Part shown: piece after piece, positions 39,368 through 59,168 of the stretch
Numbering within the stretch: position 1 is the stretch's first letter
Layout of the letters: the number at the start of each line of letters is the position of its first letter
From: Candidatus Omnitrophota bacterium
Lineage (GTDB): Bacteria; Omnitrophota; Gorgyraeia; Gygaellales; Profunditerraquicolaceae
DNA length: 64,000 nucleotides
Direction of reading: 5' to 3'
Assembly: GCA_026387335.1 (NCBI GenBank)
Contig: JAPLLX010000001.1
Span: 16,489-80,488, forward strand
Position numbers and translations under genes: made by a program
The notes under the pieces: model-generated
Database searches by the model: none
Seen by the model: the letters and a program-made list of their open reading frames with translations, nothing else
Told to the model about the DNA's origin: nothing

Positions 39368-39371
39368 AAAA

Positions 39372-46070: not shown

Positions 46071-46098
46071 TTGACTTAAGCGGCATTTCTTATAAAAT
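46071..46098 (+). promoter_or_regulatory. possible sigma70 promoter TTGACT-N16-TAAAAT
   Basis: TTGACT 46071-46076, TAAAAT 46093-46098, just upstream of the wHTH ORF. Confidence 0.3.
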
Positions 46099-46116
46099 GA
46101 AGGCCTGGAGGAGAAA

Positions 46117-46323
46117 ATGATTACAGAAATCGGTATAGTTGCTGGTGATATATGGCATTTCCTGGATCAGCACGGAGAGGCCACCTTGACTGAATTGGGC
46201 AAGGGAGTAGATAAATCCCGCGACAATCTTCTTATGAGCCTGGGTTGGTTGGCCAGGGAAGGTCACGTAGTTTTGCAACGGGCAGGCAATGACTATAAGA
46301 TATCTTTAAGAAAAGATGCCTAA
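46117..46323 (+). CDS. small winged-helix-like protein (68 aa), hypothetical
   Basis: Size and pattern (TLTELGKGVDKSRDNLLMSLGWLAREGHV) suggest a wHTH fold. Overlaps next ORF start. Confidence 0.35.
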   Translation: MITEIGIVAGDIWHFLDQHGEATLTELGKGVDKSRDNLLMSLGWLAREGHVVLQRAGNDYKISLRKDA

Positions 46324-46723
46324 TCCGGAAGCTAACGAAAGCGGCATAGTCCTAATCATCGTTCTAGCTATAATATTAGTCGTGGTTATCTTGTCCGGCG
46401 CTATGCTCAGGACCATTATCAGCCAGTCCCGTTTGACGCATCATCAGGTAAGCAGGATCAAAGCTTATTATGCCGGTAAAGGCATGATGAATTATGTCCA
46501 GGATATGCTTAGAAAGGGGACCTGGACAGCGGATACCACTAACAAAAAATACGCCTGTCATAGAGATTGCTCTGGTTTAGGCGTTCCCGCGCCCAACTAT
46601 ATAATACCTACTGATAACGATATCCTCTATAATATTCTAGTTACTATTTATCCCCTTAACCAGGCTTTAAGTAATACAGTTACCCAGTTAGATATAAAAA
46701 CAGAATATACCTACACTCCATAA
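46316..46723 (+). CDS. PilX N-terminal-domain-like membrane-anchored protein (putative pilus-associated minor component)
   Basis: ESGIVLIIVLAIILVVVILSGAMLRT resembles the PilX_N hydrophobic segment. No canonical G/FTLIE prepilin site. Confidence 0.35.
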   Translation: MPNPEANESGIVLIIVLAIILVVVILSGAMLRTIISQSRLTHHQVSRIKAYYAGKGMMNYVQDMLRKGTWTADTTNKKYACHRDCSGLGVPAPNYIIPTDNDILYNILVTIYPLNQALSNTVTQLDIKTEYTYTP

Positions 46724-46726
46724 TAA

Positions 46727-46735
46727 CCCCCCCCC
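46727..46735 (+). repeat. homopolymeric C9 tract immediately after the stop codon and ~45 nt upstream of the pilus-operon promoter
   Basis: ccccccccc at 46727-46735. Confidence 0.9.
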
Positions 46736-46779
46736 AAGTAACTTCCGGTAAGTCCATCGTAGTCTAAGTAAGAAAACAC

Positions 46780-46808
46780 TTGACAATGTAAGTCTTTTAT
46801 GTTTTAAT
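46780..46808 (+). promoter_or_regulatory. sigma70-like promoter TTGACA-N17-TTTAAT for the pilus operon
   Basis: Perfect -35 TTGACA 46780-46785. TTTAAT 46803-46808. Confidence 0.45.
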
Positions 46809-46846
46809 TAAATCCATCGTTGTTTATTATAATATAAGAAAGGGCT

Positions 46847-47038
46847 ATGACTAGACTTATAGACATTGATGAATTAGCAGAATATCTTAAGCTCAAGAAG
46901 CAGACTATATATAACTGGTTGAGCCAGGGAAAGATCTCCGGTATTAAGGTGGGAGGAGTCTGGAGGTTTGACCGTAAAGATGTGGATAACTGGCTTCAGA
47001 GCAGTAAGCGCATGTCCAAGACAGGAGTAAACCAATGA
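46847..47038 (+). CDS. excisionase-family (HTH_17/MerR-like) DNA-binding protein, first gene of pilus operon
   Basis: LIDIDELAEYLKLKKQTIYNWLSQGKISGIKVGGVWRFDRKDVDNWL: classic Xis/AlpA-type HTH. Stop overlaps the pilM ATG (ATGA). Confidence 0.6.
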   Translation: MTRLIDIDELAEYLKLKKQTIYNWLSQGKISGIKVGGVWRFDRKDVDNWLQSSKRMSKTGVNQ

Positions 47039-48585
47039 GTGACCTGGGCATATATTTTGGGCCTAAGGCTATAGATGTTTCCGAGGTTAAGGCTAGAAAA
47101 CTGCTAAATTCTATCCAGATACCCCTCTTAGGGATTACCGGCAATGAATTAGATGAGAAAGTCCCTACCGAGATAAAACTGGTAGCTTCTTTTAATGACG
47201 CTTTTAGAAGAAACAAGATTGAAGCCAGGGAAGCAGCGCTTTGTCTTTCCGGAAAAGACCTGATTATCAGGACTTTTGAGATCCCGATATTACCTAAAGA
47301 TGAACAGCAGGGAGCCATAAACTTTGAAGCTAAGAAATACATACCGTTTAAGGTTGAAGAGCTCATCTCAGACTATCAAGTTGAGCTGGATAAGTTAAGC
47401 CGGACCAATATAGTGCTTTTCATGGGTATCAAGAAGGATACCTTTGATAAGTACTTCTCCATACTTAACCAGTTAAATATAAAGATAAGCTCAATAGAAT
47501 ATTCCGGTTTTAGCGTATTAAGAGTATTAAAACTGGCCGGGATCAGAGAAAACGGGGTGATGAGCATCTTGACTTTTGACTCTCAGGCCCAGGATGAAAT
47601 AAATTTCGCGGTTTTGGAAAACGGTTTTCCTTTATTTAGCCGCGATATAAATTTAACCAGCGGGCCTTCTGATCTGGACCAGATAGATGGGTCTTTCGCA
47701 GCGTTATCTATGGATAAATTGAAGGCGGAGATCCGCGTATCGCTGGATTATTACCACCGTAAATTTCCCGCTAAGCCCTTAAAAAATATCTTTGTTTTTG
47801 CTAACTCTGATTGGCGTAAAGAACTGGAGGCGTTTATAAATGAGTTAGGCCTGCCCGGTAAGTTCATTGATATCACTAGGATCGCCGGCAAGCCCATGGC
47901 CTTTTCTTCGGGGTTTGTAAAGAGCTATAGCGTAGCTATTGCTAAGAGCGTAGCTACTAAAATAAGGCTGGATTTAATTGAAAGTAAGACAAGGGTGGAT
48001 AAGCCGTCGGCTGCGGTAGGGCTGGCCCTGGCTGGTTTATTCAAAAAGATAAAAATAGATTTTCGTTTTCTGCTTATGGGGGTATTCATTTGCATCGCTG
48101 CCTTTGCTTACGGAGTTTCCCGGGAGGCGCCCTTAAAACAGGATCTGAATAAAATAATAAGCCAAAGGATAAAAGTCAGCGATATTCACTCCGATACTAG
48201 CTTCGAAATGTTAAATACAATCAGTCTAAAAGACAGGAAGACCTTGGAGAGTTTAGATAATCTTATCCGCAAGCAGTTGTATGTTACGGAAGTCCTGGAT
48301 ATTATCCCCCGCTTTATGCCGGATGGCATATGGCTCTCCAAATTTGCTTTAAATAAGAACGCAGGAGAGGGGCTGGAACTTACATTAGAAGGAATGAGCT
48401 ATTTAGGGGATAGTAACGATGAATTCCAGGCGGTAAATAAATTCTTCAACGTTTTAAAAGAGAATACGGTGTTTGCCAAATATTTTAAAGATATAAGCTT
48501 GGTATCCATAGATCGCGCCCAGTTTTCCGGCGCCACTGTAACTAAATTTTTGATGTCTTGCAAGACCTATAAAGAGAGAAAATAA
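47035..48585 (+). CDS. pilM: type IV pilus assembly protein PilM fused to PilN
   Basis: N-terminal ~340 aa actin-like PilM-type domain. Single TM (FRFLLMGVFICIAAFAYGV). C-terminal PilN-like periplasmic region (GIWLSKF...LELTLEGMS). Confidence 0.6.
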   Translation: MSDLGIYFGPKAIDVSEVKARKLLNSIQIPLLGITGNELDEKVPTEIKLVASFNDAFRRNKIEAREAALCLSGKDLIIRTFEIPILPKDEQQGAINFEAKKYIPFKVEELISDYQVELDKLSRTNIVLFMGIKKDTFDKYFSILNQLNIKISSIEYSGFSVLRVLKLAGIRENGVMSILTFDSQAQDEINFAVLENGFPLFSRDINLTSGPSDLDQIDGSFAALSMDKLKAEIRVSLDYYHRKFPAKPLKNIFVFANSDWRKELEAFINELGLPGKFIDITRIAGKPMAFSSGFVKSYSVAIAKSVATKIRLDLIESKTRVDKPSAAVGLALAGLFKKIKIDFRFLLMGVFICIAAFAYGVSREAPLKQDLNKIISQRIKVSDIHSDTSFEMLNTISLKDRKTLESLDNLIRKQLYVTEVLDIIPRFMPDGIWLSKFALNKNAGEGLELTLEGMSYLGDSNDEFQAVNKFFNVLKENTVFAKYFKDISLVSIDRAQFSGATVTKFLMSCKTYKERK

Positions 48586-48586
48586 G

Positions 48587-49105
48587 ATGGTGCAATTAGG
48601 GCAAATAGATAAATATAAGAATAAGATTATTAATTTAGTGATAATTCTTATTGCCCTGCTTATTGCCCTGAATATCTATAAAGATAGGCTCGCTCAGATT
48701 GAGTCCTTAAAAGTAAAGATAAGCGAAGAAGCGAAGAAAAACAACGAGTTGGAAAAGATAGCCCGAATGAAGCTAAAGATAAATTCCTATAAAGAATTAC
48801 TCACCAAGCGCGAGGCCAGCCTGGTTATGGCTGATTTAAGCGAAATCTCGAAAGGCGCGGAGGTGAAAGTTTTATCCGTTAAGCCGTATCAAAAAGAATC
48901 CGCAGGCGACTACAATAGAGAAGTCTTTGAAGTGAATATTAATGCGCCGTCTTATGACTCCTTGGGTAAGTTTATTAACGCGTTGGAATCTTATAAAAAC
49001 GTTTATATGGTTGACGGCATAGATATAAGCAGCCAGGGTGTCCTTAATAAAAAGGGCTTAACGGTTAATTTGCATATAAGTTCTGTTGCTCTAACGGACC
49101 AATGA
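48587..49105 (+). CDS. pilO: type IV pilus assembly protein PilO-like
   Basis: N-terminal TM, coiled-coil segment, then ferredoxin-like C-terminal region. Position between pilMN and pilP. Confidence 0.55.
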   Translation: MVQLGQIDKYKNKIINLVIILIALLIALNIYKDRLAQIESLKVKISEEAKKNNELEKIARMKLKINSYKELLTKREASLVMADLSEISKGAEVKVLSVKPYQKESAGDYNREVFEVNINAPSYDSLGKFINALESYKNVYMVDGIDISSQGVLNKKGLTVNLHISSVALTDQ

Positions 49106-49635
49106 AAAAGATGAATAAAATTCCTGGGTCAATTTTTATTTTATGCGCATTATTGATAGCAGGATTATTTTGTTCGGAATCTTTAGGCTCTATGCAATGG
49201 GATTATGATGCTTCCAAAGGGCCTGATGCAGGCTCGGCCAAGAATGTAGCGGTTAAGGATAGCGCTCTCCAGCAGGAGGCGGTCATCCGGCCTAAAGTTG
49301 AGTATAGGGCGCAGGGGTTAAAGGATCCTTTCCAGCCGCTGGTTATCGAAGAAGAGGCTGTCAACTCTGTAGTGGCCAGCCCGGTTAAAATAAAACAGTT
49401 GCCTGCTTTGACTATTCAGGGTTTAATCTGGGGAGGAGATTTTCCTCAGGCGATTATAAATAATAAAGTAGTAAAGATAGGAGACCAAATCGCAGACGCA
49501 GAAGTAGTAGCAATAGATAAAGAAGGGGTCATCTTGCTTTATGCCAACAAAAAATATAAATTGTCCTCTCCGGCCCTGATGGGCCCGCGGAAAGAAAAGC
49601 AAACAGAAGGAGGAAATAATGAGAAGTCAAATTAA
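49102..49635 (+). CDS. pilP: type IV pilus assembly lipoprotein PilP-like
   Basis: Signal/lipoprotein N-terminus. Conserved LKDPFQP motif characteristic of PilP. Position directly before secretin. Confidence 0.6.
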   Translation: MKKMNKIPGSIFILCALLIAGLFCSESLGSMQWDYDASKGPDAGSAKNVAVKDSALQQEAVIRPKVEYRAQGLKDPFQPLVIEEEAVNSVVASPVKIKQLPALTIQGLIWGGDFPQAIINNKVVKIGDQIADAEVVAIDKEGVILLYANKKYKLSSPALMGPRKEKQTEGGNNEKSN

Positions 49636-51172
49636 GTCAGTTGTTTTTATTTTCATTTTGCTCAGCCTTATTTTTGCCCACAGGGTAAGCGCCTCAGACG
49701 AGGCGTCTATTTTGAACGGTAGAGACTCGACCATCTCTATGGATTTACAGGATACGCCCCTAAAGAGCGTGCTGAAGCTTCTATCCATACAGTCGGGCTT
49801 AAATTTTATTGCTTCCGAGGGTCTCCAGGACAGGAGTATAACTTTGTATTTGGATAAGGTACCCTTGAAGGAGGCAATGGATAAGATATTCAAGGCGAAT
49901 AATCTCTCGTATGATTTAGACAAAGAGTCCAATATTTTCATTGTCAATGATTGGGGGAAGCCGACAACCCAGACCATAACTAAAGTTTTTTACTTAAAAC
50001 ATGCTACGGTTTCTTCTTCTTCATTGATGGAAGAGCTGAAAAACAATAAAGAAAACAATGCTACCAGTACTTCCAGCTATTCAACCAGTTCATCCAGTAG
50101 TTCTTCTTCAAGTACCACCGATAACGGCAAATGGAAAGTCGAAGAAGACGCGGGGATCACTCAGGTAGTAAAGAAGCTTTTATCAAAAGATGGTTCAGTA
50201 ATTGAGGATTTTCGCACCAACAGCCTTACGGTTACCGATACTCCTGGAAGGATTGAAGTTATCTCTCAGGTAATCGCCTCGTTGGATATTTCAATTCCGG
50301 AAGTCATGCTGGAAGTAGAGATGCTGGATGTAAGCAAAAATGTTGTGGATAAGTTAGGTTTTAAATTCGGCCAGACTCCCTTCTCAGTCGCCTTCACCGG
50401 CAGTACCGCGGCTGCCGGTTTTCCGTATCAGAGCTGGACAAAGATAATCGGAGGCGAAAGCTCTCTGGATGTAAACAACGCTAATACCGCCGGCGGCGCG
50501 TATAAAATACAGTTAGATTTTCTGCGCACACAGACAGACACCAAGTTTTTAGCTCGCCCCAGGATCATGACTCTGAATAACGAGACTGCCGAAATCAAGA
50601 TTACTTCTAATGAAACTATAGGTATAACCAGCATACAGCAGGGGCAGGGATCTGCGGCGTCCACTACTACCGAGGCGGAAAGGGCGGAGACAGGAGTAAG
50701 CTTAAGGGTTACTCCTCAAGTTGATGTGGAAGCCGGAGAAATTACGATGTTTATTATTCCTACGGTAAAAGATACCGCAGTCAGCTCCATTCCTATCGGC
50801 GGCACAGGCAGCAATTTTTATAAGGATCCGGAAGAGCGGACGACTAAGTCCACGGTGCGGGTTAAAGACGGAGAAACTGTTGTCCTGGGGGGCCTGATCC
50901 GCAACCAGAATACGACTATTGTTACCAAGCTGCCTATTTTAGGGGATATACCTTTATTGGGAATGCTCTTTAGGCATAAAGAACAGTCTCCGGGCAGAGA
51001 GCGCGAACTCTTGGTTTTTATAACCCCGCACATTATGAAAAACGTTAAGTCCGAGCCGACTCCGGTTAAGAAAAAAACAGTTCTCCCGTTAAGAGAACAG
51101 GCTAAATTTGTTCCTCTTACCCGGCAGCAGAACATTAGCGCCTATTTGAATAATTTTGATGCTAAGCGCTAA
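49619..51172 (+). CDS. pilQ: type IV pilus secretin PilQ
   Basis: Signal peptide. Secretin C-terminal domain (VVLGGLIRNQNTTIVTKLPILGDIPLLGMLFRHKEQSPGRERELLVFITPHI). Ser-rich low-complexity linker. Confidence 0.85.
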   Translation: MRSQIKSVVFIFILLSLIFAHRVSASDEASILNGRDSTISMDLQDTPLKSVLKLLSIQSGLNFIASEGLQDRSITLYLDKVPLKEAMDKIFKANNLSYDLDKESNIFIVNDWGKPTTQTITKVFYLKHATVSSSSLMEELKNNKENNATSTSSYSTSSSSSSSSSTTDNGKWKVEEDAGITQVVKKLLSKDGSVIEDFRTNSLTVTDTPGRIEVISQVIASLDISIPEVMLEVEMLDVSKNVVDKLGFKFGQTPFSVAFTGSTAAAGFPYQSWTKIIGGESSLDVNNANTAGGAYKIQLDFLRTQTDTKFLARPRIMTLNNETAEIKITSNETIGITSIQQGQGSAASTTTEAERAETGVSLRVTPQVDVEAGEITMFIIPTVKDTAVSSIPIGGTGSNFYKDPEERTTKSTVRVKDGETVVLGGLIRNQNTTIVTKLPILGDIPLLGMLFRHKEQSPGRERELLVFITPHIMKNVKSEPTPVKKKTVLPLREQAKFVPLTRQQNISAYLNNFDAKR

Positions 51173-51189
51173 ACTATACCCCGACATCT

Positions 51190-52923
51190 ATGTTGAATAA
51201 AGGAAGATACCTAAGGTTAGGCGAGCTTCTGGTCAAAGAAGGCTTACTTAACGAAGTCCAGCTGGAAAAAGCCATAGCCACTCAACGCCAGGAAGGCGGC
51301 AGGTTGGGTGAGGTATTGGTTAAGCTGGGCATTGTCAAAGAAGACCAGATGGTAGCGGTTTTAGGCAAGCAGCTGAATGTCCCCTATTTTTCGCTGGGCA
51401 CCGGGATGCTTAAACCCGCGGCAGACCAGGGCCTTGAGCGGCTTATCCCGCACGAGTTTGCCCTGAAGAATTCCATTCTGCCTTTGTCGCGCACTTTGCG
51501 TTCTTTAACCGTAGCTATGTCTGATCCGTTGGATCTGATCTTAATTGATAATTTAGGAAGGCTGACTAATTGCGAAATTAATCCGGTTATTGCCACAAAA
51601 TCCGATATTGTCAAGGCAATAGAAGATTTCTATGGTAAATCCGCGATGTTAAAACAAGCGGTAGACGCCAGCTATGATGTTTCTGCCGCTGACCTTGCCT
51701 CCGCGGCCACGACCGGGGAAGAAACGCCTGACCAGGAATTAAGTTTGGATAAATTAGTTGCCCGGGCCGAAGAAGCGCCGGTAGTAAAACTGGTGGATTT
51801 AATCATCAGACAGGCGATTGATGAGCGCGCTTCCGATATTCATATTGAGCCTTTTAATAATAAAATATCATTAAGATACCGTATTGACGGCAAATTGTAT
51901 GAAATACCTCCGCCGGCAAAACACCTGCATTTACCGATCATTTCGCGCATTAAAATTTTAGCCAAACTGGATATTGCCGAGAAACGTCTTCCTCAGGACG
52001 GAGCTTTTATGGTCAGGATCGGGGAAAGGCCCATAGATATCCGGGTTTCTTCAATACCTACGATATACGGAGAAAAAATCGCTATGCGGTTACTGGACCG
52101 CAGCCAGGTGGTCCTTGACCTTAACCAGTTGGGTTTTGATCTTAAACAGCTGGAGCTTATCCGTAAATGCATAAGTACTCCTTACGGTTTAATATTCCTG
52201 ACCGGGCCCACGGGTAGCGGCAAAACCACTACTTTGTACGCCATCTTAAATGAAATAAAGAGCCCCACTAAAAATATTGTTACAATTGAGGATCCTGTAG
52301 AGTATAAATTAGATGGGATTAATCAGGTGCAGATTAAGCCTGAAATAGGCCTGACTTTTGCTTCCGCCTTGCGCAGTTTCTTAAGGCAGGATCCTGATAT
52401 AATGCTGGTAGGAGAGGTGCGGGATTTAGAGACTGCCCAGATATGCGTACGTTCCGCTCTTACCGGGCGCCTGGTTTTAAGCACGCTACATACTAATGAT
52501 GCACCCACTGCCGTAAGCCGGCTTATGGATATAGGTATTGAGCCCTATATGCTTTCTTCGTCTCTAGTCGCGATAATATCCCAGCGTTTAGTAAGGAAAC
52601 TCTGTCCGGATTGTAAAGAGGCGTATGAATCCGGAGAGCAGGAGACCAAGAATATTAAATTAAAAGCAGAATTAATTTATAAGGCCAAAGGTTGCGCCAG
52701 CTGTAATAATACGGGCTATAAAGGCAGGATATGTATTTCCGAGATCATGATCCTGAATGAAGAACTGAAAAACCTGATCAGCCAAAGGGCTTCCTTCCAA
52801 AAGATAAGGGAGGTTGCCCGGGCTAACGGTATGCAGACTTTATACGAATCCGCGTTAAAAAAAGTAGAAGAAGGCTCGACTTCCCTGGAAGACGCGCTTT
52901 CGATTACTCTGGGGGCGGACTAA
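51190..52923 (+). CDS. pilB: type IV pilus assembly ATPase PilB (GspE family)
   Basis: N-terminal GspII_E domain. Walker A LTGPTGSGKTTTL. Asp box, His box, tetracysteine motif (CPDC...CASC). Confidence 0.9.
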   Translation: MLNKGRYLRLGELLVKEGLLNEVQLEKAIATQRQEGGRLGEVLVKLGIVKEDQMVAVLGKQLNVPYFSLGTGMLKPAADQGLERLIPHEFALKNSILPLSRTLRSLTVAMSDPLDLILIDNLGRLTNCEINPVIATKSDIVKAIEDFYGKSAMLKQAVDASYDVSAADLASAATTGEETPDQELSLDKLVARAEEAPVVKLVDLIIRQAIDERASDIHIEPFNNKISLRYRIDGKLYEIPPPAKHLHLPIISRIKILAKLDIAEKRLPQDGAFMVRIGERPIDIRVSSIPTIYGEKIAMRLLDRSQVVLDLNQLGFDLKQLELIRKCISTPYGLIFLTGPTGSGKTTTLYAILNEIKSPTKNIVTIEDPVEYKLDGINQVQIKPEIGLTFASALRSFLRQDPDIMLVGEVRDLETAQICVRSALTGRLVLSTLHTNDAPTAVSRLMDIGIEPYMLSSSLVAIISQRLVRKLCPDCKEAYESGEQETKNIKLKAELIYKAKGCASCNNTGYKGRICISEIMILNEELKNLISQRASFQKIREVARANGMQTLYESALKKVEEGSTSLEDALSITLGAD

Positions 52924-54167
52924 TGGCTAACTATTATTATATTGCCAGGAATAAGGCCGGAAATAAGATTAGCGGAGTTGAAGAAGGCTCGACCCAGGAT
53001 GAAGCGCTTAACCGGCTGCAGGCCAGAGGACTTGTGGTGGTGAGTATCTCTGTTGATGCGGGTAAAAATATCCCTACCCAGCCTGAAGCAAGCACGGGAG
53101 CAAAGGAAAAGGTCGGCTATAAACACAATAGGATTTCCGGGACGGATCTGACTCTTTTTTCCCGTCAGTTAGCCACGCTTTTGGGCGCCGGGGTAACTAT
53201 TCTAAAAAGCCTGAGTATTATCTCGCAGCAGGTCGCCAGTAAGCGTTTATACCTTGTGATTAAAGACTTGGAAAAAAATATGGAATCCGGTTTAAGCTTC
53301 CATGAGGCGATGGCTAAACACCCTGAGGTTTTTACTGAGCTTTGGATCCATCTGGTAGAGAGCGGAGAAGCCAGCGGTAACCTAGCGGTTGTTTTATCAC
53401 GCTTAGCCGGATACCTCGAGAGATACGCTTCTTTTAAGAAAAAAATTATATCCGCCCTGATTTATCCGGCGATACTATTTTGCGCCGGCATATTAGCGCT
53501 CTTGTTTATGACCATTAAGATCATTCCTACTTTTGCCGAAGTCTTCAGCGGTTTTAATATAAAACTGCCTTTTTTGACCCTTCTTTTGATTAGTGTAAGC
53601 AAGATCATTCGGGGGTATTTTTTGTTGATTATCGCGGTTTTAGTGGGAGCTATCTGGTTTTTCCGTAAGTTTATTTCGACTAAAAACGGCAAGAGGGCAT
53701 ATGAGGAATTCCTCTTGAAGTTGCCGGTCTTTGGAGAATTCTTTCATACTCTCATCATCGAGCGGTTCACTTCTGAGATGTCCACTCTTGTGGAAAGCGG
53801 GGTGCCCATACTTTATTCCCTGGAGATCGCGGAGCGCAGCGTGGATAACCTTGTTTTAGGGGAAATTGTCCGCAACATAAAGGATGATGTGCGGGAAGGA
53901 AAAGCTTTGGGTAAATCCCTGGAGAAGAGTAATTTTTTTGATCCGATGGCCGTGCAGATGATTAACATAGGAGAAGAAATCGGAGAATTATCCAACATGT
54001 TTAAGCGGCTGAATACATTTTATCAGGAATACCTGGATACGTTCCTGACCCGTTTTACCGCTATGTTTGAGCCGGTTATGCTGGTTTTTATCGGAGCGGT
54101 TATCGGCATAATGGTCATCGGGATGTTTTTGCCGATTTTTGAAATTTCTCAGATTGGCAGCAAGTAG
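52923..54167 (+). CDS. pilC: type IV pilus inner-membrane platform protein PilC (GspF family)
   Basis: Two GspF repeats with 3 TM helices. 414 aa. Confidence 0.9.
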   Translation: MANYYYIARNKAGNKISGVEEGSTQDEALNRLQARGLVVVSISVDAGKNIPTQPEASTGAKEKVGYKHNRISGTDLTLFSRQLATLLGAGVTILKSLSIISQQVASKRLYLVIKDLEKNMESGLSFHEAMAKHPEVFTELWIHLVESGEASGNLAVVLSRLAGYLERYASFKKKIISALIYPAILFCAGILALLFMTIKIIPTFAEVFSGFNIKLPFLTLLLISVSKIIRGYFLLIIAVLVGAIWFFRKFISTKNGKRAYEEFLLKLPVFGEFFHTLIIERFTSEMSTLVESGVPILYSLEIAERSVDNLVLGEIVRNIKDDVREGKALGKSLEKSNFFDPMAVQMINIGEEIGELSNMFKRLNTFYQEYLDTFLTRFTAMFEPVMLVFIGAVIGIMVIGMFLPIFEISQIGSK

Positions 54168-54174
54168 AAATGTT

Positions 54175-54203
54175 TTGTAATTCTTAAAAAATAGTATTAG
54201 AAT
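54175..54203 (+). promoter_or_regulatory. possible internal promoter TTGTAA-N17-TAGAAT upstream of the pilin gene block
   Basis: Located in the 86-nt pilC-pilin spacer. Confidence 0.3.
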
Positions 54204-54253
54204 ATAGGAGAGGGTGAGGTTAAAACAATAGCATAAAGAAGGGGGCGAGGAGA

Positions 54254-54646
54254 ATGAAAAAAAATAGGAAGGGTTTTACTTTAATCGAGTTGATTATTGT
54301 CGTCGTAATTGTAGGTATATTAGCCCTGGTCGCTATCCCGAGGTATTTCGCCAATATTGAGAAAGCCAGAAAAGCGGAAGCGCTTTCCAGTATGCGCTCT
54401 ATAAGAGAAGCGATAATGGGTTACTATGCCGCAAATAACGCTTATCCTACCGCGAATTCTTTCCCCATTACCGTAAATATTGACGGAGATGACGTAATGG
54501 TGGTAGAGCAGCCTTCTTCCACTAATTTTGCCTATAGCTACACTTCTACCGTGATTACAGCTGCGCATACAGGGGCAGGAGTCTGTACTTATACTATGAA
54601 TATCGCTTCCGGATCAATTGGTAAATCTCCCGCATCGTGCCCTTAG
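54254..54646 (+). CDS. type IV pilin-like protein (prepilin N-terminal cleavage/methylation domain), paralog 1
   Basis: MKKNRKG|FTLIELIIVVVIVGILA class III signal. C-terminal Cys pair (CTYT...SPASCP) forming a D-region loop. Confidence 0.8.
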   Translation: MKKNRKGFTLIELIIVVVIVGILALVAIPRYFANIEKARKAEALSSMRSIREAIMGYYAANNAYPTANSFPITVNIDGDDVMVVEQPSSTNFAYSYTSTVITAAHTGAGVCTYTMNIASGSIGKSPASCP

Positions 54647-54667
54647 TAGCTTAGGATATTTATAAAG

Positions 54668-55045
54668 ATGCCAAAACGGATTTATGCTTTTACGCTGATC
54701 GAATTAATTATCACGGTTGCAATCGTGTTGATTTTGGCGGGGTTTGCTTTAGTCAAGTATTCTAATGTTATTGAAAAGGCGCGCTCCGCAGAAGCCTACG
54801 CCGTATTAGCCGATATTGCTGCCGCGGAAAACGGTTATTATGTAGAGTATAATACTTATACTAATGTTTGGGCAAATCTGGATAGGTATAGTTCGGCACC
54901 GGTCAGCCAAAATTTTGATTTTTCTTCGGCTTTAAGCTCTTTGGGCAGTGGTTATGTACAGGCTACTCATGTTATCGGGACTCTAGACTATTATATGTGT
55001 ATAAAAGGAGGCGGCAAGGGGACAACTGCTCCGTCTTGCCCTTAA
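54668..55045 (+). CDS. type IV pilin-like protein, paralog 2 (Ala at -1)
   Basis: IYA|FTLIELIITVAIVLILA. C-terminal CIKGGGKGTTAPSCP. Confidence 0.75.
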   Translation: MPKRIYAFTLIELIITVAIVLILAGFALVKYSNVIEKARSAEAYAVLADIAAAENGYYVEYNTYTNVWANLDRYSSAPVSQNFDFSSALSSLGSGYVQATHVIGTLDYYMCIKGGGKGTTAPSCP

Positions 55046-55046
55046 G

Positions 55047-55463
55047 ATGAAGAAGAGAGGCGCCTTTACCCTGATTGAGCTTATTGTGGTAGTTGTAATA
55101 ATTATTACGCTGGCTTTAATAGCTATTCCCAGTTATAGCAAATCCAAGAACAGGGCAATACAAAAAGAAGCAATTTCCAACCTTAAGCTTATTGCGGCAG
55201 CGGAGAGAATATACAGGATGGAAAATAATGTTTATGTTGCCTGCAGTTGTTCTAGTCCTGCAGTTTGCGCCAATGCCACGACCGGATGCAACCCTTTGCT
55301 TAAACTTATGTTAAATAACGCTAACTGGTCCTATACCGTGACTGCTGCAGCCGGGACCAGCTGCGCAATTACGGCCGCGTCAACAGGCATAGGTTGCACC
55401 TATACTTTAAATAGCGCAGATTTTGACACCCTGGATTATTCAACGGCATCAGGCTGCAGTTAA
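55047..55463 (+). CDS. type IV pilin-like protein, paralog 3 (Ala at -1)
   Basis: KRGA|FTLIELIVVVVII. C-terminal Cys pair. Confidence 0.75.
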   Translation: MKKRGAFTLIELIVVVVIIITLALIAIPSYSKSKNRAIQKEAISNLKLIAAAERIYRMENNVYVACSCSSPAVCANATTGCNPLLKLMLNNANWSYTVTAAAGTSCAITAASTGIGCTYTLNSADFDTLDYSTASGCS

Positions 55464-55464
55464 C

Positions 55465-55794
55465 ATGAATAAAAGAGCCTTGACCCTGCTGGAAATTATT
55501 GTTTCTACGATTATCCTGGCTTTAGTTATGACGGGGTTGATTAATGTCATTGTAGCCGGCAGGCAGCTCCTCCAGCATAGCCGTAACCGTATGGGTGCGG
55601 GAGAAATAGGAAAGAGGTTTATTGATCCCCTCCAGAATCAGGTAAGACAGGACACCTGGAGCAGCAGTTGTTTCGGCACGGATAGCCTGACTAATTCCAT
55701 CAGCGGTATGTATACCGCTTCATATACTATCAACACGCATCCTTCCGACGCGCAGATCAAGAAAGTAAAGACCAAAGTAAGCTGGACAGAATAA
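55465..55794 (+). CDS. minor pilin / pseudopilin-like protein
   Basis: MNKRA|LTLLEIIVSTIILALV prepilin-like N-terminus. ATG 55465 overlaps the preceding stop. Confidence 0.5.
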   Translation: MNKRALTLLEIIVSTIILALVMTGLINVIVAGRQLLQHSRNRMGAGEIGKRFIDPLQNQVRQDTWSSSCFGTDSLTNSISGMYTASYTINTHPSDAQIKKVKTKVSWTE

Positions 55795-56378
55795 TGCCTC
55801 TTTATTCCCGGAAATCAATCACCCTTATAGAATTATTAATTGCGATGGTTTTGCTGGCGGTAATAATCTTAGCTATTAATAATGTGAATGTCTTCAGCCG
55901 TTATCATTTTATCTCTACTGACCGCCGGGCAAAAATCCAGAATGACGCCTCCCGCTGCCTTGAGCATATAACCAAATATGCCTCTCAGGCAATAGGCAAT
56001 GAGGCTGTTTTCGGAGGGGCCTCTGCCGTATATGCCGGCACTAATGTCCTGTCTTTTTTTATGGATGTCAACGCTAATGGTTTAAGGGATACGGCGGGCG
56101 AGGATTATTGGGTTGGTTACAGGCTCAATAATTCAACTTATCAACTTGGCTATTGTAGCCATTGTAGCGACTATTCTTGTTCGACTTGTAGCAGCGCTAT
56201 AGAATACTTGGCTAATGATATAACTGTTTTTTCCGCTACTAATAATGGCAATTACGTGAACGCGGATATCACTGCTTGTTGGAACCCCGCGGGAACTATA
56301 GCGGCCTGCAATACTCCGGATAACCCCAGCGTTACAATGAATTCCAGTATCCACTTACCCTCTGTCGCCACCAATTAA
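55794..56378 (+). CDS. minor pilin / pseudopilin-like protein with Cys cluster (CSHCSDYSCSTC)
   Basis: RKS|ITLIELLIAMVLLAVII prepilin-like N-terminus with Ser at -1. 194 aa. Confidence 0.5.
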   Translation: MPLYSRKSITLIELLIAMVLLAVIILAINNVNVFSRYHFISTDRRAKIQNDASRCLEHITKYASQAIGNEAVFGGASAVYAGTNVLSFFMDVNANGLRDTAGEDYWVGYRLNNSTYQLGYCSHCSDYSCSTCSSAIEYLANDITVFSATNNGNYVNADITACWNPAGTIAACNTPDNPSVTMNSSIHLPSVATN

Positions 56379-56412
56379 ATAGGGACAGCGACCATTAATA
56401 TTGCCCCTATTT
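56377..56412 (+). repeat. degenerate/truncated copy of the 23-bp TAGGGACAGCGACCATT inverted-repeat element
   Basis: AAATAGGGACAGCGACCATT matches 20/20 of the left arm at 14786. Remnant right arm ttgcccctattt. Confidence 0.4.
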
Positions 56413-56454
56413 GTATTTACAAAATTGATAAAGTATGTTAAATTTAACCTCTAT

Positions 56455-56530
56455 GGGGCTGTAGCTCAGCTGGGAGAGCGCCTCGTTCGCAACGAGGAGG
56501 CCAGGAGTTCGATCCTCCTCAGCTCCACCA
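56455..56530 (+). tRNA. tRNA-Ala (anticodon CGC)
   Basis: GGGGCTGTAGCTCAGCTGGGAGAGCGCCTCGTTCGCAACGAGGAGGCCAGGAGTTCGATCCTCCTCAGCTCCACCA. Cloverleaf with G3:U70 alanine identity pair, anticodon loop TTCGCAA, encoded CCA. Confidence 0.9.
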
Positions 56531-56605: not shown

Positions 56606-57721
56606 GTGCATACCGATATGAAGCATATTAATAAGTTAATCCTATCCACCGCGACCCTTTTTTCTTTATTTTTTCTTTGTATATTCCTACCCAGTCTATT
56701 CAGTTCTGAACAGCCGAAAGAAGCCTCATTCTACCAAAAGCTTAAGAACAATATAGTCCAATGCGGGCTTTGTCCCCGTCGCTGCACGATCCCTGAAGGC
56801 TTACGCGGGTATTGCCGGACGCGCGAAAACCGTAAGGGAGTATTGTATACTTTAGTTTACGCCAAACCCGTGGCGATACACATTGACCCTATAGAGAAAA
56901 AACCTCTGTTTCATTTCTTACCTTCGGCTAAGGCTTATTCTATCGCTACCGCGGGGTGCAACTTAAAATGTAAATTCTGCCAGAATTGGGAGATATCCCA
57001 GAGTAAACCCGAAGAGCTGGAGTATATTTATCTTACTCCAGCGGATTTAATAAAAAAGGTTAAAGAGTCAGGGACTGCGGTAATCGCTTACACCTATAAT
57101 GAGCCGACCATATTTTATGAATATATGCTGGAAACCGCCAAGCTCGCCCGTCAGCAGGGGATAAAGAATGTGATGCATTCTAACGGCTATATAAATGAGG
57201 CGCCGCTTAAGGAGCTAGCTAAATATCTTGACGCAGCTAATATTGACTTAAAGGGATTTAGCGAAGAATATTACGCAAAACTTACGGAAGGGAGCCTGGC
57301 GCCGGTATTAAATTCCCTTAAGGTATTAAAGAGCCAGGGTGTGCACATTGAGATAACTACCTTGCTTCTTTCCGGTTTTAACGACGACGCAGCCGTCTTA
57401 AAAAAGATGTGCCTTTGGATTAAGGACAATTTAGGCCCGGATACCCCGTTGCATTTTTCCAGGTTTTTCCCGATGTATAAATTGACTAGCCTTAACCCTA
57501 CTCCCCTAGATTCTCTTGAGCGGGCCAGAAGAATAGCCATTGAATGCGGATTAAAATATGTTTATATCGGCAATATTTCGCCGAATCCAGCGGAAAATAC
57601 GTATTGTCCCGGTTGCGGAAAAATAGTTATTGAGCGTAACGGTTATTTTGTTAGGCAGGACAACTTAAAAAAAGGAAGGTGCAAATTCTGTGGAGAAGAA
57701 ATTGCGGGTATATGGAATTAG
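56606..57721 (+). CDS. amrS: AmmeMemoRadiSam system radical SAM enzyme (AmrS) with an unusual ~30-aa N-terminal hydrophobic leader
   Basis: QCGLCPRRCTIPEGLRGYCRTREN...DPIEKKPLFHFLP...GCNLKCKFCQNWEIS: the AmrS-specific double Cys-cluster signature. Confidence 0.85.
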   Translation: MHTDMKHINKLILSTATLFSLFFLCIFLPSLFSSEQPKEASFYQKLKNNIVQCGLCPRRCTIPEGLRGYCRTRENRKGVLYTLVYAKPVAIHIDPIEKKPLFHFLPSAKAYSIATAGCNLKCKFCQNWEISQSKPEELEYIYLTPADLIKKVKESGTAVIAYTYNEPTIFYEYMLETAKLARQQGIKNVMHSNGYINEAPLKELAKYLDAANIDLKGFSEEYYAKLTEGSLAPVLNSLKVLKSQGVHIEITTLLLSGFNDDAAVLKKMCLWIKDNLGPDTPLHFSRFFPMYKLTSLNPTPLDSLERARRIAIECGLKYVYIGNISPNPAENTYCPGCGKIVIERNGYFVRQDNLKKGRCKFCGEEIAGIWN

Positions 57722-59168
57722 CGGGTTAATTTTTTTGTTTTTATTTTACACGCTGGCTTACTCGGAGAATATAAAAGAACCCTGCGTTGCCGGCACATTT
57801 TATCCGGATGACCCGGGGGAGTTATCCTTGATGATCGACACTTACCTTAAAAAAGCCGATCCTAAGCAATCGACTGCAGAGATATTCGCTTTAATCTCTC
57901 CTCACGCGGGTTACGGCTATTCCGGAGAGGTTGCCGCGTTTGGCTATAAACTGATTAAAGATAGGCCGTATAAGACGGTAGTCATCCTGGGTACAAGCCA
58001 CCGTTATTCTTTTAGCGGAGCTTCGGTTTACCCGCAAGGCGCATTTAAAACTCCGCTGGGCCTGGTCACAGTGGATAGTGAGTTTGCCGGAAAATTGCTG
58101 GGTAATGATCCGGAAATAATCTTTGCCGCGCAAGCCTTTAAAGAAGAGCATAGCGTAGAGGTGCAGCTGCCGTTTTTACAAAAGACGCTGGTTGATTTTA
58201 AGATTGTCCCGTTAGTTTTAGGTGATTGCACCTTATCTACTTGTAAAAGGTTAGCCAGCCTGCTGAATAAGGCGATCGGAGAGCGAAAAGATGTCTTAGT
58301 GATCGTTTCCACGGATATGTACCACGGATATGATTATGATGAGGCGGATAAGGTAGATAACCTTACTCTTAATGCCATAAGTAGTCTGGATGCCGAGGCC
58401 CTTTATTACGGCCTGCGCGACCAGAATTTACAGCTTTGCGGCGGCTTTGGCGCGGTAACTCTGCTTATGCTGGCCAAAAGCCTGGGCTATGACAAAATAA
58501 CGCTATTGAAGCATAGAAATTCCGCGGAAGTCACGGGAAATAAGAAAAAAGGTATTTGGACCGTAGGATACGCCAGCTGTGCGGTTAGCCAGCCAAAAGA
58601 AGGAGAAAGAGGCATGTTAAATAAATCCCAGAGAAAAAGATTACTGGAAATCGCGCGCAGTTCAATAGAAAAATATTTAAAGACGGGTAAGATTTTGGAG
58701 CTTACTGAACCTGACCCGTTCCTGTCAAAAGATATGGGGGCTTTTGTCACTTTGAATAAAAAGGGAGAGCTGCGCGGATGCATCGGCAATCTTATCGGCT
58801 CAAAAGCATTATATTTAACCATAAGGGATATGGCGGTTGCTGCCGCTACGGAAGATCCCCGTTTTAGCCGGGTAGAGCTTACGGAGCTAAAAGATATTAA
58901 TATTGAAATTTCTGTTTTATCTCCTATGGAGAGAATTGACAATCCTGATAAAATTAAACTTGGGGTTCACGGTGTTCTGGTGCGTAATGGTTTTAGAAGC
59001 GGGGTATTTCTCCCTCAGGTAGCTACTGAAACCGGTTGGTCTAAAGAGGAGTTTATGTCTAACCTGTGCCAACATAAAGCCGGGCTGGCCCCCGACGCCT
59101 GGAAAGATAAAGAGACCGAAATTTACATATTTAGCGCGGAAGTATTTTCAGAGAAAGAGCTTAAATAG
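57690..59168 (+). CDS. amrB: fusion of AmmeMemoRadiSam system protein B (MEMO1-like) and protein A (AMMECR1 domain), with N-terminal hydrophobic leader
   Basis: N-terminal half: GTFYPDDPGEL...ISPHAGYGYSG...ILGTSH (MEMO1/AmrB). C-terminal half: GAFVTLNKKGELRGCIGNL...EDPRFSRVE...GVFLPQVA (AMMECR1/AmrA). Confidence 0.8.
   Translation: MEKKLRVYGISGLIFLFLFYTLAYSENIKEPCVAGTFYPDDPGELSLMIDTYLKKADPKQSTAEIFALISPHAGYGYSGEVAAFGYKLIKDRPYKTVVILGTSHRYSFSGASVYPQGAFKTPLGLVTVDSEFAGKLLGNDPEIIFAAQAFKEEHSVEVQLPFLQKTLVDFKIVPLVLGDCTLSTCKRLASLLNKAIGERKDVLVIVSTDMYHGYDYDEADKVDNLTLNAISSLDAEALYYGLRDQNLQLCGGFGAVTLLMLAKSLGYDKITLLKHRNSAEVTGNKKKGIWTVGYASCAVSQPKEGERGMLNKSQRKRLLEIARSSIEKYLKTGKILELTEPDPFLSKDMGAFVTLNKKGELRGCIGNLIGSKALYLTIRDMAVAAATEDPRFSRVELTELKDINIEISVLSPMERIDNPDKIKLGVHGVLVRNGFRSGVFLPQVATETGWSKEEFMSNLCQHKAGLAPDAWKDKETEIYIFSAEVFSEKELK

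Follow-up and report, generated by a model that had tools for sequence, protein, structure and literature searches.

Gene Content of the Locus

Positions 46071–56378 of the window, by which we mean the entire stretch of 64,000 nucleotides of Omnitrophota DNA that was analyzed, hold a type IV pilus-like gene cluster whose genes, promoters, and candidate operator are all on the plus strand. An earlier note on this DNA had described an operon for type IV pilus-type machinery; the domain matches bear that description out, and all open reading frames were found at the coordinates that it gave. The note placed an HTH gene at the start of the operon. This gene is indeed the first cistron before pilMN, but the locus begins earlier, with a DUF2582 gene and a sixth pilin-like gene that had both been overlooked. 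A sigma-70-type promoter (46071–46098; TTGACT, 16 nt, TAAAAT; 10 of 12 matches) precedes the gene for a 68-aa winged-helix protein of the DUF2582 family (46117–46323; Pfam PF10771, E 5.8e-15), the closest solved structures to which, 2l02 and 2l01, are both uncharacterized. Its stop overlaps by 8 nt the start of the gene for a 135-aa PilX/GspK-like minor pilin (46316–46723), which matches GspK in NCBIfam, reads SG/IVLII at the cleavage site (marked here by a slash), and lacks Glu5.

The HTH gene (46847–47038) encodes a 63-aa excisionase/MerR-type protein (Pfam HTH_17, E 1.5e-16; NCBIfam excisionase domain, 55 bits with a cutoff of 29), and the ATGA overlap of its stop with the pilMN start, reported previously, can be read directly in the sequence (...CAATGAGTGAC...). 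The PilM–PilN fusion that the note had proposed is real. This 516-aa protein (47035–48585) consists of an actin-like domain, a linker motif resembling the PilN N-terminus (KIRLDLI), a transmembrane helix, and a ferredoxin-like domain, with residues 40–206 matching PilM_2 (32.3 bits, cutoff 27) and residues 420–510 matching PilN (28.2 bits, cutoff 22.8). Its AF2 model (pLDDT 80) matches the PilM:PilN complexes 5eou and 2ych (E 1e-19 to 5e-17), below which FtsA and GspL rank in the same fold search (E 1e-19 for PilM vs. 4e-9 for GspL), and we identified 728 full-length homologs of about 515 aa each. At the N-terminus the fusion reads LGIYFG where an unfused paralog reads GLDIGT; judged from these residues, its actin-like domain has lost the phosphate-1 Asp and would no longer bind ATP.

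The next genes follow the order that the note had given. PilO (48587–49105; 172 aa) occupies a conserved position and matches its Pfam model at 22.4 bits (cutoff 22). The 177-aa protein that follows (49102–49635) has a signal peptide and the sequence DPFQP, in agreement with the reported DPFxP motif, and matches Pfam T2SSB at 26.5 bits, under the cutoff of 28.4; a profile of 35 orthologs had as its sole match the GspC HR domain 3oss_C (E 0.088). We tentatively assign it as PilP, mainly from its position, this motif, and these weak matches. Profile searches also recovered the short secretin, PilB, and PilC. The 517-aa secretin (49619–51172; Pfam Secretin, E 2.2e-40) is composed of an STN/N0 domain, one Secretin_N domain with a Ser/Thr-rich insert, and the Secretin domain, and its NCBIfam scores of 199 bits for PilQ, 180 for GspD, and 132 for MshL are all under the respective cutoffs. 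The extension ATPase PilB (51190–52923; T2SSE, E 9e-138) has type IVa PilB as its best full-length PDB matches (5zfr and 3jc8) and retains an intact MshEN-type c-di-GMP-binding N-terminus (NF053729, 62.8 bits, cutoff 38) with both 24-aa motifs (residues 9–32 and 38–61), which are also both intact in 42 of 57 orthologs. The platform protein PilC/GspF (52923–54167) matches T2SSF twice (E 8e-58) and scores 349 bits for GspF and 328 bits for Thermus PilC, both under cutoff. The scores of PilB, PilC, and the secretin, all below curated equivalog cutoffs, do not tell whether the system is a type IVa pilus or a type II secretion system.

The five pilin-like genes that follow had been described as carrying noncanonical cleavage sites, with a remote pilA (61968) as the sole canonical pilin. 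However, pil1 (54254–54646), a major-pilin-like prepilin, is canonical too (MKKNRKG/FTLIE; N_methyl, E 4.8e-10), and 35 of 40 orthologs have Gly at −1. It carries a C-terminal Cys pair, which is typical of type IVa major pilins. The remaining four sites do read A/F, A/F, A/L, and S/I: these belong to the paralogs pil2 (54668–55045; YA/FTLIE) and pil3 (55047–55463; GA/FTLIE), the latter type being present in one to four copies per species, to a small minor pilin of 109 aa, pil4 (55465–55794; RA/LTLLE), whose N_methyl score of 20.5 bits is just below the cutoff of 21.2 and 28 of 29 orthologs of which match this model, and to a larger minor pilin of 194 aa, pil5 (55794–56378; KS/ITLIE; N_methyl 25.4 bits), which weakly matches the prepilin peptidase-dependent protein PRK10557. 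Ala at −1 cannot be called noncanonical, as the last residue of leader peptides is Gly or Ala (Pelicic 2023, PMC10191384), and Gly, Ala, and Ser replace one another at the same pilin position between species (in pil5, 17 Ser, 7 Ala, and 8 Gly), leaving Ser as the only unusual −1 residue.

Conservation of the Locus and Its Surroundings

Clusters of this kind are common to at least 80 species of Omnitrophota, an uncultivated phylum. The order DUF2582, PilX-like pilin, HTH, PilMN, PilO, PilP, secretin, PilB, PilC, pilins recurs in 80 species, the PilMN sequences of which are 42–70% identical to the one studied here, and because of this recurrence the arrangement is far beyond chance. The earlier note had considered the locus atypical and had suggested a comparison of synteny in related genomes; that comparison recovered the same gene order but no peculiarity of a single genome, as the arrangement is the norm among the species sampled. 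Median identities across loci are 76% of length for the HTH protein, 75% for PilB, 73% for DUF2582 (present in 66 loci), and 45% for PilMN, and the HTH protein is far more conserved than PilMN, PilO, or PilP. Its overlap with pilMN persists in 70 of 79 loci (4 nt in 62 and 1 nt in 8), and Omnitrophota are the source of every named sequence among its 1,226 homologs.

The remote pilA heads a second, separate cluster, an unfused pilMNOPQ that lies 5.6 kb downstream of the locus and extends past the end of the window. No ATPase or platform protein is encoded near this cluster, and a tblastn search with PilB found no paralog in the 64 kb. The two clusters may share PilB and PilC; if so, the locus would not be self-contained. 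The note's statement that the window lacks pilT and pilD agrees with our searches, which yielded no PilB paralog with tblastn and no A24-peptidase motif or Pfam match; within 10 kb, pilT is absent in all 160 loci searched, and in 80 other species neither pilT (by homology search) nor pilD (by a crude motif only) was found within ±10 kb. A missing pilT fits a nonretractile system or a secretion system equally well as a pilus.

Relationship to Pili and Secretion Systems

Type IVa pili have already been reported to be near-universal in Omnitrophota (PMC10066038). What is new here is a tiny, very conserved, predicted DNA-binding protein as the first gene, with an equally conserved promoter and phased repeats, and also a PilM–PilN fusion that resembles GspL of secretion systems. 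We consider it reasonably probable that the filament machine encoded here is self-contained and type IVa-pilus-like, that its fused anchor resembles GspL, and that it is autoregulated by its HTH protein and gated by c-di-GMP at PilB. Shared with the type IVa pili of Myxococcus, Pseudomonas, and Thermus are the PilM_2, PilN, and PilO domains, with PilM:PilN complexes as the best fold match, a PilB with an MshEN N-terminus and a full-length match to type IVa PilB, a secretin, a major-pilin-like gene (G/FTLIE) whose product has a C-terminal disulfide, and several minor pilins. Unlike those systems, the locus encodes PilM and PilN as one polypeptide in which the nucleotide-binding Asp is lost, forms a single gene cluster with pilT and pilD not nearby, has a short secretin with no AMIN domain match, begins its main operon with an HTH gene, splits off the PilX-like pilin to pair it with DUF2582, and frequently has Ser at −1.

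The same genes could instead form a type II secretion-like system, in which pil1 would build a short periplasmic pseudopilus on a primer of pil4, pil5, and the PilX/GspK-like pilin and folded proteins would leave through the secretin, the neighboring unfused pilA-pilMNOPQ being the true pilus. The complex of PilM and PilN is the counterpart of GspL/PulL (PMC4471445, PMC10191384); the fusion, which has lost the phosphate-1 Asp (LGIYFG), has the architecture of that protein, and type II secretion systems derive from the type IVa pilus via loss of PilT (PMC10191384), which is absent within 10 kb across the 80 loci. All genes lie in one cluster, as in type II secretion systems, and the pseudopilin set is comparable, with a G-like major pilin and a K-like pilin without Glu5. 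The top NCBIfam matches are GspF for PilC and the GspG N-terminus for pil1, the upstream pilin matches GspK, and the PilP-like protein matches nothing but T2SSB and the GspC HR domain. A second, classical cluster also adjoins the locus, but with neither an ATPase nor a platform protein close by it is not obviously independent. We nevertheless regard this alternative as rather doubtful. Pfam identifies PilM_2, PilN, and PilO and no GspL, GspM, or GspC family at E ≤ 0.01, the fold of the fusion is well nearer to PilM than to GspL, and PilB at full length is nearest to type IVa PilB. Moreover, a GspC PDZ domain is missing from the PilP-like protein, the secretin has one N-domain in place of an N1-N2-N3 array, the K-like pilin measures 135 aa where GspK has about 300, and pil1–pil3 carry a C-terminal Cys pair.

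The msh locus of Vibrio (mshIJKL-MN-EG-pilins) encodes alignment proteins, secretin, ATPase, platform, and pilins in the same order as the Omnitrophota locus, and the MSHA ATPase shares the MshEN c-di-GMP motif with PilB. PilT has been lost from MSHA as well (PMC10191384). As for MSHA, the upstream neighborhood includes a conserved TPR protein, but its gene is coupled to uvrA, with other genes intervening in many loci. In addition, the Omnitrophota locus lacks an MshM-like ATPase, and the sole MSHA-specific match, MshL at 132 bits with a cutoff of 250, is weaker than those to PilQ and GspD.

Promoter, Phased Repeats, and the HTH Protein

A promoter that can be read from the sequence (46780–46808; TTGACA, 17 nt, and the extended −10 element TGnTTTAAT) precedes the HTH gene and has near-maximal information content over 62 loci. 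Just upstream lies a candidate operator of four AGTAAG-like direct repeats (46737–46772; AGTAAC, GGTAAG, CGTAGT, AGTAAG) at roughly 10-bp phasing, for which the 62 loci yield the consensus AAGTAAGTnTAAGTAAGTnT; relative to TTGACA, AGTAAG occurs at −33 in 46 of these loci and at −23 in 36. Taken by itself, the repeat match in the window is degenerate and does not exceed chance. Tandem AGTAAG-N4-AGTAAG has 81 matches across 1.96 Mb of related loci, 68 of which are at most 250 nt upstream of an HTH gene and none upstream of the second pilus cluster. In a visual alignment of 43 loci, the DUF2582 promoter recurs in most of them as aGTTGACa-N17-TATAAAAT, and this promoter lacks AGTAAG repeats. In one locus with pilins inserted upstream (L036), the promoter and repeats stay with the HTH gene. 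The suggestion that the HTH protein is a dedicated regulator is strengthened by this conserved promoter and by phased repeats found at almost no other position, and the protein probably autoregulates its own operon.

A parallel is offered by BldC, a 68-aa MerR/Xis-like winged-HTH protein that binds head-to-tail to direct repeats (PMC5859096). Both are single-domain MerR/excisionase-type HTH proteins of similar size (63 vs. 68 aa) without dimerization or effector domains, and the candidate sites of the Omnitrophota protein are likewise tandem direct repeats about one helical turn apart (PMC5859096). However, the NCBIfam BldC model gives it only 21 bits (cutoff 77), the repeat is AGTAAG as against AATT-N4-C, the Omnitrophota protein serves, so far as 160 loci show, one operon and not a regulon, and no integrase or mobile element accompanies its gene. 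The repeats could also be bound by DUF2582 or another factor. In another reading, the HTH protein, and DUF2582 with it, might primarily be a stoichiometric subunit of the machine and not a transcription factor, docked for example on the cytoplasmic PilM domain or PilB, and something else would then bind the repeats. This might be expected of a protein that equals the motor ATPase in conservation and far exceeds PilMN, PilO, or PilP, that is translationally coupled to a structural gene in 70 of 79 loci, and that has a counterpart in a second small winged-helix gene coupled likewise to a pilin gene. We find this improbable, as the Xis/MerR/BldC fold family consists of DNA binders (PMC5859096), a dedicated direct-repeat element stands at an activator-type position before the gene's own promoter and almost nowhere else, and strong conservation would equally be expected of a regulator whose operator is conserved. 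The competence (DNA-uptake) pilus that the earlier note had suggested is very improbable: the absence of pilT nearby and the DNA-binding folds encoded in the locus would fit it, but its only specific hints, matches of pil1–pil3 to ComP_DUS (20–26 bits, cutoff 27.3), are subthreshold and attributable to the general pilin fold, ComG-family scores are far under those for PilB and GspE, no comEA- or comEC-like genes were noticed in passing in the window or flanks, and the locus has PilMNOP-type alignment proteins and a secretin, whereas in a review account Com pili lost the secretin and branched before type IVa pili gained PilMNO (PMC10191384).

Returning to the autoregulated, type IVa-pilus-like machine, the locus as a whole is best explained, with moderate confidence, as two adjacent transcription units. 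The first would supply the DUF2582 protein and, by translational coupling, a PilX/GspK-like tip pilin. The second would be a 14-gene operon transcribed from the strong, conserved promoter with its A-tract, TTGACA, and extended −10 element. Its first product, the single-domain Xis/MerR-type HTH protein, would bind head-to-tail to the 10-bp-phased AGTAAG repeats just 5' of the −35 box. The fusion would take the role of GspL, with a cytoplasmic actin-like domain, one transmembrane helix, and a periplasmic PilN domain, joined by PilO, the PilP/GspC-HR-like connector, the short secretin, and the platform PilC, and the MshEN N-terminus of PilB probably makes extension dependent on c-di-GMP. The filament would consist of pil1 and its paralogs pil2 and pil3 on a minor-pilin primer of pil4, pil5, and the PilX-like protein, processed by a prepilin peptidase that is encoded elsewhere and would have to take Gly, Ala, and Ser at −1, and the product may be a surface pilus for attachment. 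A tRNA-Ala gene (56455–56530) lies 3' of pil5, the last gene of the operon.

Organization and Conservation of the Locus

The pilus operon extends over positions 46847-56378 on the plus strand, with every open reading frame (ORF) listed in the earlier note present at its coordinates. It is tightly packed: adjoining genes mostly overlap or sit 1–21 nt apart, and the single larger gap, 86 nt, lies between pilC and the first pilin gene. The first cistron encodes a 63-aa HTH protein (46847-47038), which is followed by the gene for a 516-aa PilM-PilN fusion (47035-48585, PilMN), and the operon closes with five prepilin genes, pil1 to pil5 (54254-56378), after which comes a tRNA-Ala gene (56455-56530). 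An Rfam scan of the entire window returned this tRNA alone and no riboswitch or leader RNA before the operon. Just upstream of the HTH gene lie two conserved genes that had been overlooked, one for a DUF2582 winged-helix protein of 68 aa (46117-46323; E 5.8e-15) and one for a 135-aa PilX/GspK-like pilin (46316-46723), whose start and the DUF2582 stop share 8 nt; a profile of the PilX-like family matched no sequence in the PDB.

We scanned one genome per species and obtained 80 loci. In a phmmer-based map, every locus of sufficient length has the order (TPR)-DUF2582-PilX-like-HTH-PilMN-PilO-PilP-PilQ-PilB-PilC followed by four to six pilins. Median identity to the proteins of the window, expressed relative to query length, is 76% for HTH, 75% for PilB, 73% for DUF2582, 63% for PilC, 54% for PilQ, 45% for PilMN, 34% for PilO, 32–43% for the pilins, and 28% for PilP; both small proteins with DNA-binding folds are therefore as constrained as the motor ATPase. 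Omnitrophota are widespread, ultra-small, uncultivated bacteria thought to be attached to or to prey on other cells, and their near-universal type IVa pili have been linked to attachment and predation and are considered central to this lifestyle (PMC10066038). In the literature we found no description of the HTH gene as first cistron or of the DUF2582/PilX-like pair, and no paper that mentions DUF2582. The analysis defines a conserved core locus that includes two small DNA-binding genes unremarked before.

The PilM-PilN Fusion

The fusion of PilM and PilN proposed in the earlier note is borne out by Pfam, which places PilM_2 at residues 40–206 (32.3 bits, cutoff 27) and PilN at residues 420–510 (28.2 bits, cutoff 22.8). 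An AlphaFold model built with 30 homologues (pLDDT 80) predicts an actin-like domain (residues 1–305), a transmembrane helix, a long helix, and a ferredoxin-like domain. Foldseek ranked the Pseudomonas aeruginosa PilM:PilN(1–12) complex, Thermus thermophilus PilM-PilN, and the Myxococcus machine model at the top (E 1e-19 to 8e-17), followed by FtsA (5e-11) and then by the cytoplasmic domains of GspL/EpsL (4e-9). Because these matches point to an actin-like fold in the predicted structure, the objection that the earlier note itself had raised, that the 516-aa protein might lack one, fails.

We found 728 homologues of the fusion, all ~515 aa in length, and those that are named all come from Candidatus Omnitrophota; we found no description of a PilM-PilN fusion in this phylum in the literature. 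The linker, which is confidently modelled, carries a motif resembling the N-terminus of PilN, KIRLDLI, where the unfused paralogue has IEINLLP. At the N-terminus of the fusion, 61 of 80 orthologues read LGIYFG in place of the ASKHA phosphate-1 motif seen in the unfused paralogue, GLDIGT; judged from these sequences, the fusion has probably lost ATP binding. The cytoplasmic domain of GspL, too, is not known to bind nucleotides. Reviews treat PilM plus PilN as the counterpart of GspL/PulL (PMC4471445, PMC10191384), and by this analogy the fusion would work like GspL while it still scores as PilM and PilN. An extant PilM-PilN fusion is relevant to how GspL arose, and the use of such a GspL-like protein, still recognizable as PilM plus PilN, in the main machine of a phylum bears on the origin of type II secretion systems (T2SS) from type IVa pili.

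Type IVa-Like Pilus or Secretion System

The remaining components differ in how clearly they can be assigned. The 517-aa secretin, PilB, and PilC are clear assignments, PilO is marginal but above the Pfam cutoff (22.4 bits, cutoff 22), and the protein termed PilP has a signal peptide and a DPFQP motif, with similarity limited to sub-threshold matches to T2SSB and GspC-HR (E 0.088). PilM, PilN, and PilO matches above Pfam cutoffs, taken with the fold match of the fusion, thus make up the set of type IVa alignment proteins, two of them fused. Within its single Secretin_N domain, the secretin (49619-51172) has a Ser/Thr-rich low-complexity insert (ATSTSSYSTSSSSSSSSSTTDNG) at residues ~148–170.

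NCBIfam scores do not separate a pilus from a T2SS, and all of them are under the curated cutoffs. The ATPase scores 615 bits against PilB (TIGR02538; cutoff 676) and 602 against GspE (cutoff 630), the platform protein 328 against PilC models (cutoff 700) and 349 against GspF (cutoff 424), and the secretin 199 against PilQ and 180 against GspD (cutoff 351). We consider it rather likely that the locus encodes a type IVa-like pilus. A secretion-type function, which we regard as doubtful, would take the locus as a T2SS-like or MSHA-like derivative, and this fits the GspL-like architecture of the fusion, the grouping of all genes in one place, the 160 loci in which no PilT-like gene lies within 10 kb, and the second, classical cluster; in the literature, T2SS and MSHA both go back to type IVa pili that lost PilT (PMC10191384). 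Against this stand the family matches to PilM, PilN, and PilO, with no match to GspL, GspM, or GspC in Pfam or NCBIfam at E <= 0.01, the fold ranking headed by PilM:PilN (E 1e-19), a full-length PilB whose best PDB matches are type IVa PilB proteins, a second cluster without its own motor, and a pair of C-terminal cysteines in pil1 to pil3. Such a pair is a feature of type IVa major pilins. The locus also departs from a T2SS in that GspE and GspF both stay below equivalog level and the secretin has one Secretin_N domain instead of the N0–N3 array of GspD, and from MSHA in that MshL reaches 132 bits (cutoff 250) and no other Msh-specific NCBIfam model matched. The competence-type pilus considered in the earlier note is very improbable, since the Com pilus has neither a secretin nor PilMNO and this locus has both, ComGA (254 bits, cutoff 300) and ComGB (147 bits, cutoff 240) score far under PilB and GspE, and the positive evidence is limited to sub-threshold ComP_DUS matches. 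The Omnitrophota system is a known type of machine in a new form.

PilB contains both 24-residue MshEN motifs (residues 9–32 and 38–61; model score 62.8 bits, cutoff 38), which were also both found in 42 of 57 PilB orthologues. With this N-terminus, pilus extension would probably be gated by c-di-GMP.

Prepilins and Their Processing

The absence of pilT and pilD from the window, remarked on in the earlier note, was confirmed: there is no PilB paralogue in the 64 kb, and the GDxK(L) motif, a crude criterion, does not occur in any hydrophobic ORF, those of the window being PMT_2 or DsbD_2 proteins and not A24 peptidases. Nor do the two genes lie immediately outside in the same operon, because neither was found in the ~12 kb past the 3' end of the window as seen on a 704-kb contig and no PilB paralogue is encoded within ±10 kb in the 80 related loci; pilT was likewise missing from the surroundings of the second cluster in its own set of 80 loci. 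By the same crude motif, hydrophobic ORFs in the 80 related loci gave no pilD candidate. As at least nine prepilin-type genes depend on a prepilin peptidase, it must be encoded elsewhere. In the literature on Omnitrophota that was searched (main texts and the supplements of one paper) we found no statement on pilT or pilD.

Five prepilins of the operon had been described as having non-canonical cleavage sites, with a remote pilA as the only canonical one. This does not apply to pil1 (54254), whose site is the canonical KG/FTLIE (the slash marks cleavage), and the others do read YA/F, GA/F, RA/L, and KS/I. Leader peptides of type 4 filaments end in Gly or Ala (2023 review, PMC10191384), so Ala at -1 is within the published rule and only Ser is outside it; class III signal peptides of this form are present in pil1 and the PilX-like protein (Gly) and in pil2 to pil4 (Ala), and pil5 (Ser) departs from it. 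In orthologous pilins of 80 species, Gly, Ala, and Ser replace one another at -1, the respective counts being 35, 5, and 0 for pil1, 34, 5, and 12 for pil3, 22, 11, and 1 for pil4, and 8, 7, and 17 for pil5. This interchange is a feature tolerated throughout the lineage and no sign of pseudogenes. Ser at -1 of prepilins is thus common in one bacterial phylum, a frequency for which we found no description in the Omnitrophota literature; a wider specificity of the prepilin peptidase is to be expected, which is relevant to pilin-finding software. The orthologue sets of pil4 and pil5 matched N_methyl alone in Pfam and were therefore not assigned as GspI/GspJ or PilV/PilW.

The HTH Protein and a Conserved Promoter Element

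The 63-aa HTH protein matches HTH_17 in Pfam (E 1.5e-16) and contains an excisionase-type domain (TIGR01764 in NCBIfam, 55.4 bits, cutoff 28.8); the solved structure closest to it is that of a mycobacteriophage excisionase, Pukovnik Xis (4j2n), to which the match is weak. The family has 1226 members, and the named ones are exclusively from Omnitrophota. The HTH stop and the pilMN start overlap as ATGA, and this overlap is 4 nt in 62 of 79 loci and 1 nt in eight. Because the gene has a fixed place in the chromosome, with housekeeping genes to both sides and, in 78 of 80 loci, as part of the pilus operon, we rejected its reading as the excisionase of a mobile element. No integrase was noticed beside it. 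Membership in the MAD1 family of MADS defence was likewise rejected (NF047737, 72.3 bits, cutoff 80; the neighbors are pilus genes). The protein also falls outside the BldC subfamily (NF033787, 21 bits, cutoff 77), and its likeness to BldC is limited to the fold class and a proposed mode of binding: BldC (68 aa) assembles head-to-tail on tandem direct repeats as cooperative multimers (PMC5859096). No paper was found that ties an excisionase-family HTH protein to pilM.

For 62 loci we aligned the sequence preceding the HTH gene, anchored on TTGACA, and obtained the near-invariant consensus taAGTAAGTnTaaGTAAgtnTAtatAAAAAAACAC-TTGACA-N12-TTATGTTtTAAT, in a region whose consensus fragment begins AAGTAAGTCTAAGTAAGTTTATATAAAAAAACACTTGACA. 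The element comprises an A-tract, a consensus -35 box, an extended -10, and two direct repeats phased by 10 bp, with AGTAAG at -33 in 46/62 loci and at -23 in 36/62. A search of 1.96 Mb of Omnitrophota loci on both strands for AGTAAG-N4-AGTAAG, allowing at most one mismatch, gave 81 matches, 68 of which are on the sense strand within 250 nt upstream of an HTH gene; three more are slightly farther upstream, and none precedes the second cluster. In one locus, L036, pilin genes have been inserted upstream, yet the repeats and promoter remain with the HTH gene. The DUF2582 unit has a separate conserved promoter without AGTAAG repeats. In the window, where the promoter of the HTH operon occupies 46780-46808, the repeats are more degenerate (AGTAAC at -43, GGTAAG at -33, CGTAGT at -22, and AGTAAG at -13) and the tandem pattern shows no excess over chance, so that the significance of the repeats comes from the cross-species comparison only. 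We found neither promoter nor repeats described in the Omnitrophota literature. Between the PilX-like stop and the repeats the window has a C9 homopolymer (46727-46735), a possible slippage site that is absent from the other 61 aligned loci.

Given phased repeats at its own promoter and its extreme conservation, the most economical reading is autoregulation, in which the HTH protein would bind the repeats just upstream of the -35 box. The repeats and promoter offer a concrete, testable cis-element for switching the pilus on, and together with the HTH protein they give an uncultivated phylum a regulatory module that is clean and testable. A more elaborate reading, which we hold to be quite improbable, is that both small (w)HTH proteins, which are ultra-conserved and in each case coupled by translation to a structural gene, form an assembly-sensing circuit integral to the machine: an idle or complete machine could hold the HTH protein, for example at the fusion's cytoplasmic PilM domain or at PilB, and once subunits are needed the protein would be freed to polymerize on the AGTAAG repeats. 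If that were true, the fusion would represent a surviving intermediate stage on the way from type IVa pili to GspL of type II secretion.

A Second Pilus Cluster

The remote pilA (61968-62348, with an ATG start at 61968 on record) has a Ser/Thr-rich C-terminus and is followed by a gene for a membrane protein with TPR repeats (62415-64000, truncated by the window end). On near-identical contigs the cluster continues (L083, 10001-17535) with two pilins, one of them without Glu5, an unfused PilM (343 aa), PilN (MIEINLLPEE...), PilO, PilP, and a 550-aa secretin, and then gives way to housekeeping genes. It is kept in 80 further metagenomic loci, normally without an ATPase or platform gene, and its proteins are only 24–25% identical to those of the first cluster, a deep divergence. 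The remote pilA is therefore part of a different system.

Further variants were seen on some Omnitrophota contigs (L146, 3802-6452; L163/L164, 3577-6248; L135, 7086-10583). One variant has another long PilM-like ORF (~540 aa) with PilO and PilP beside the second cluster, and another has a PilB-PilC-pilin set directly behind the secretin of this cluster.

Several PMT_2 (GT39-like) multi-pass membrane proteins in the window adjoin a GT2 gene, and two have C-terminal TPRs; multi-pass membrane proteins of this kind were noted at 19760-21286, which had no match in Pfam, at 37429-40793, and at 62415-64000. The position of such a protein directly after the Ser/Thr-rich pilA suggests O-glycosylation of the pilin.

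Neighboring Genes

The upstream neighbor of the pilus locus, conserved in most species and a possible part of the system, encodes an 828-aa secreted TPR protein with BamD/YfiO-like matches (43579-46065), and its start overlaps the uvrA stop; in many species ~2 kb of other genes lie between it and the pilus locus. On the downstream side, near-identical contigs (L083/L084, 3769-4534) carry, in the stretch that separates tRNA-Ala from the last pilin gene, a gene for a 196-aa Y1 transposase (PF01797) with GGGGAGCGTCCCC-type palindromes on either side, and the window is without it (compare 56379-56454), a polymorphism between strains. Directly after tRNA-Ala, a radical SAM gene and a Memo-AMMECR1 fusion gene (56606-59168) form an AmmeMemoRadiSam-type set that is unrelated to the pilus locus.
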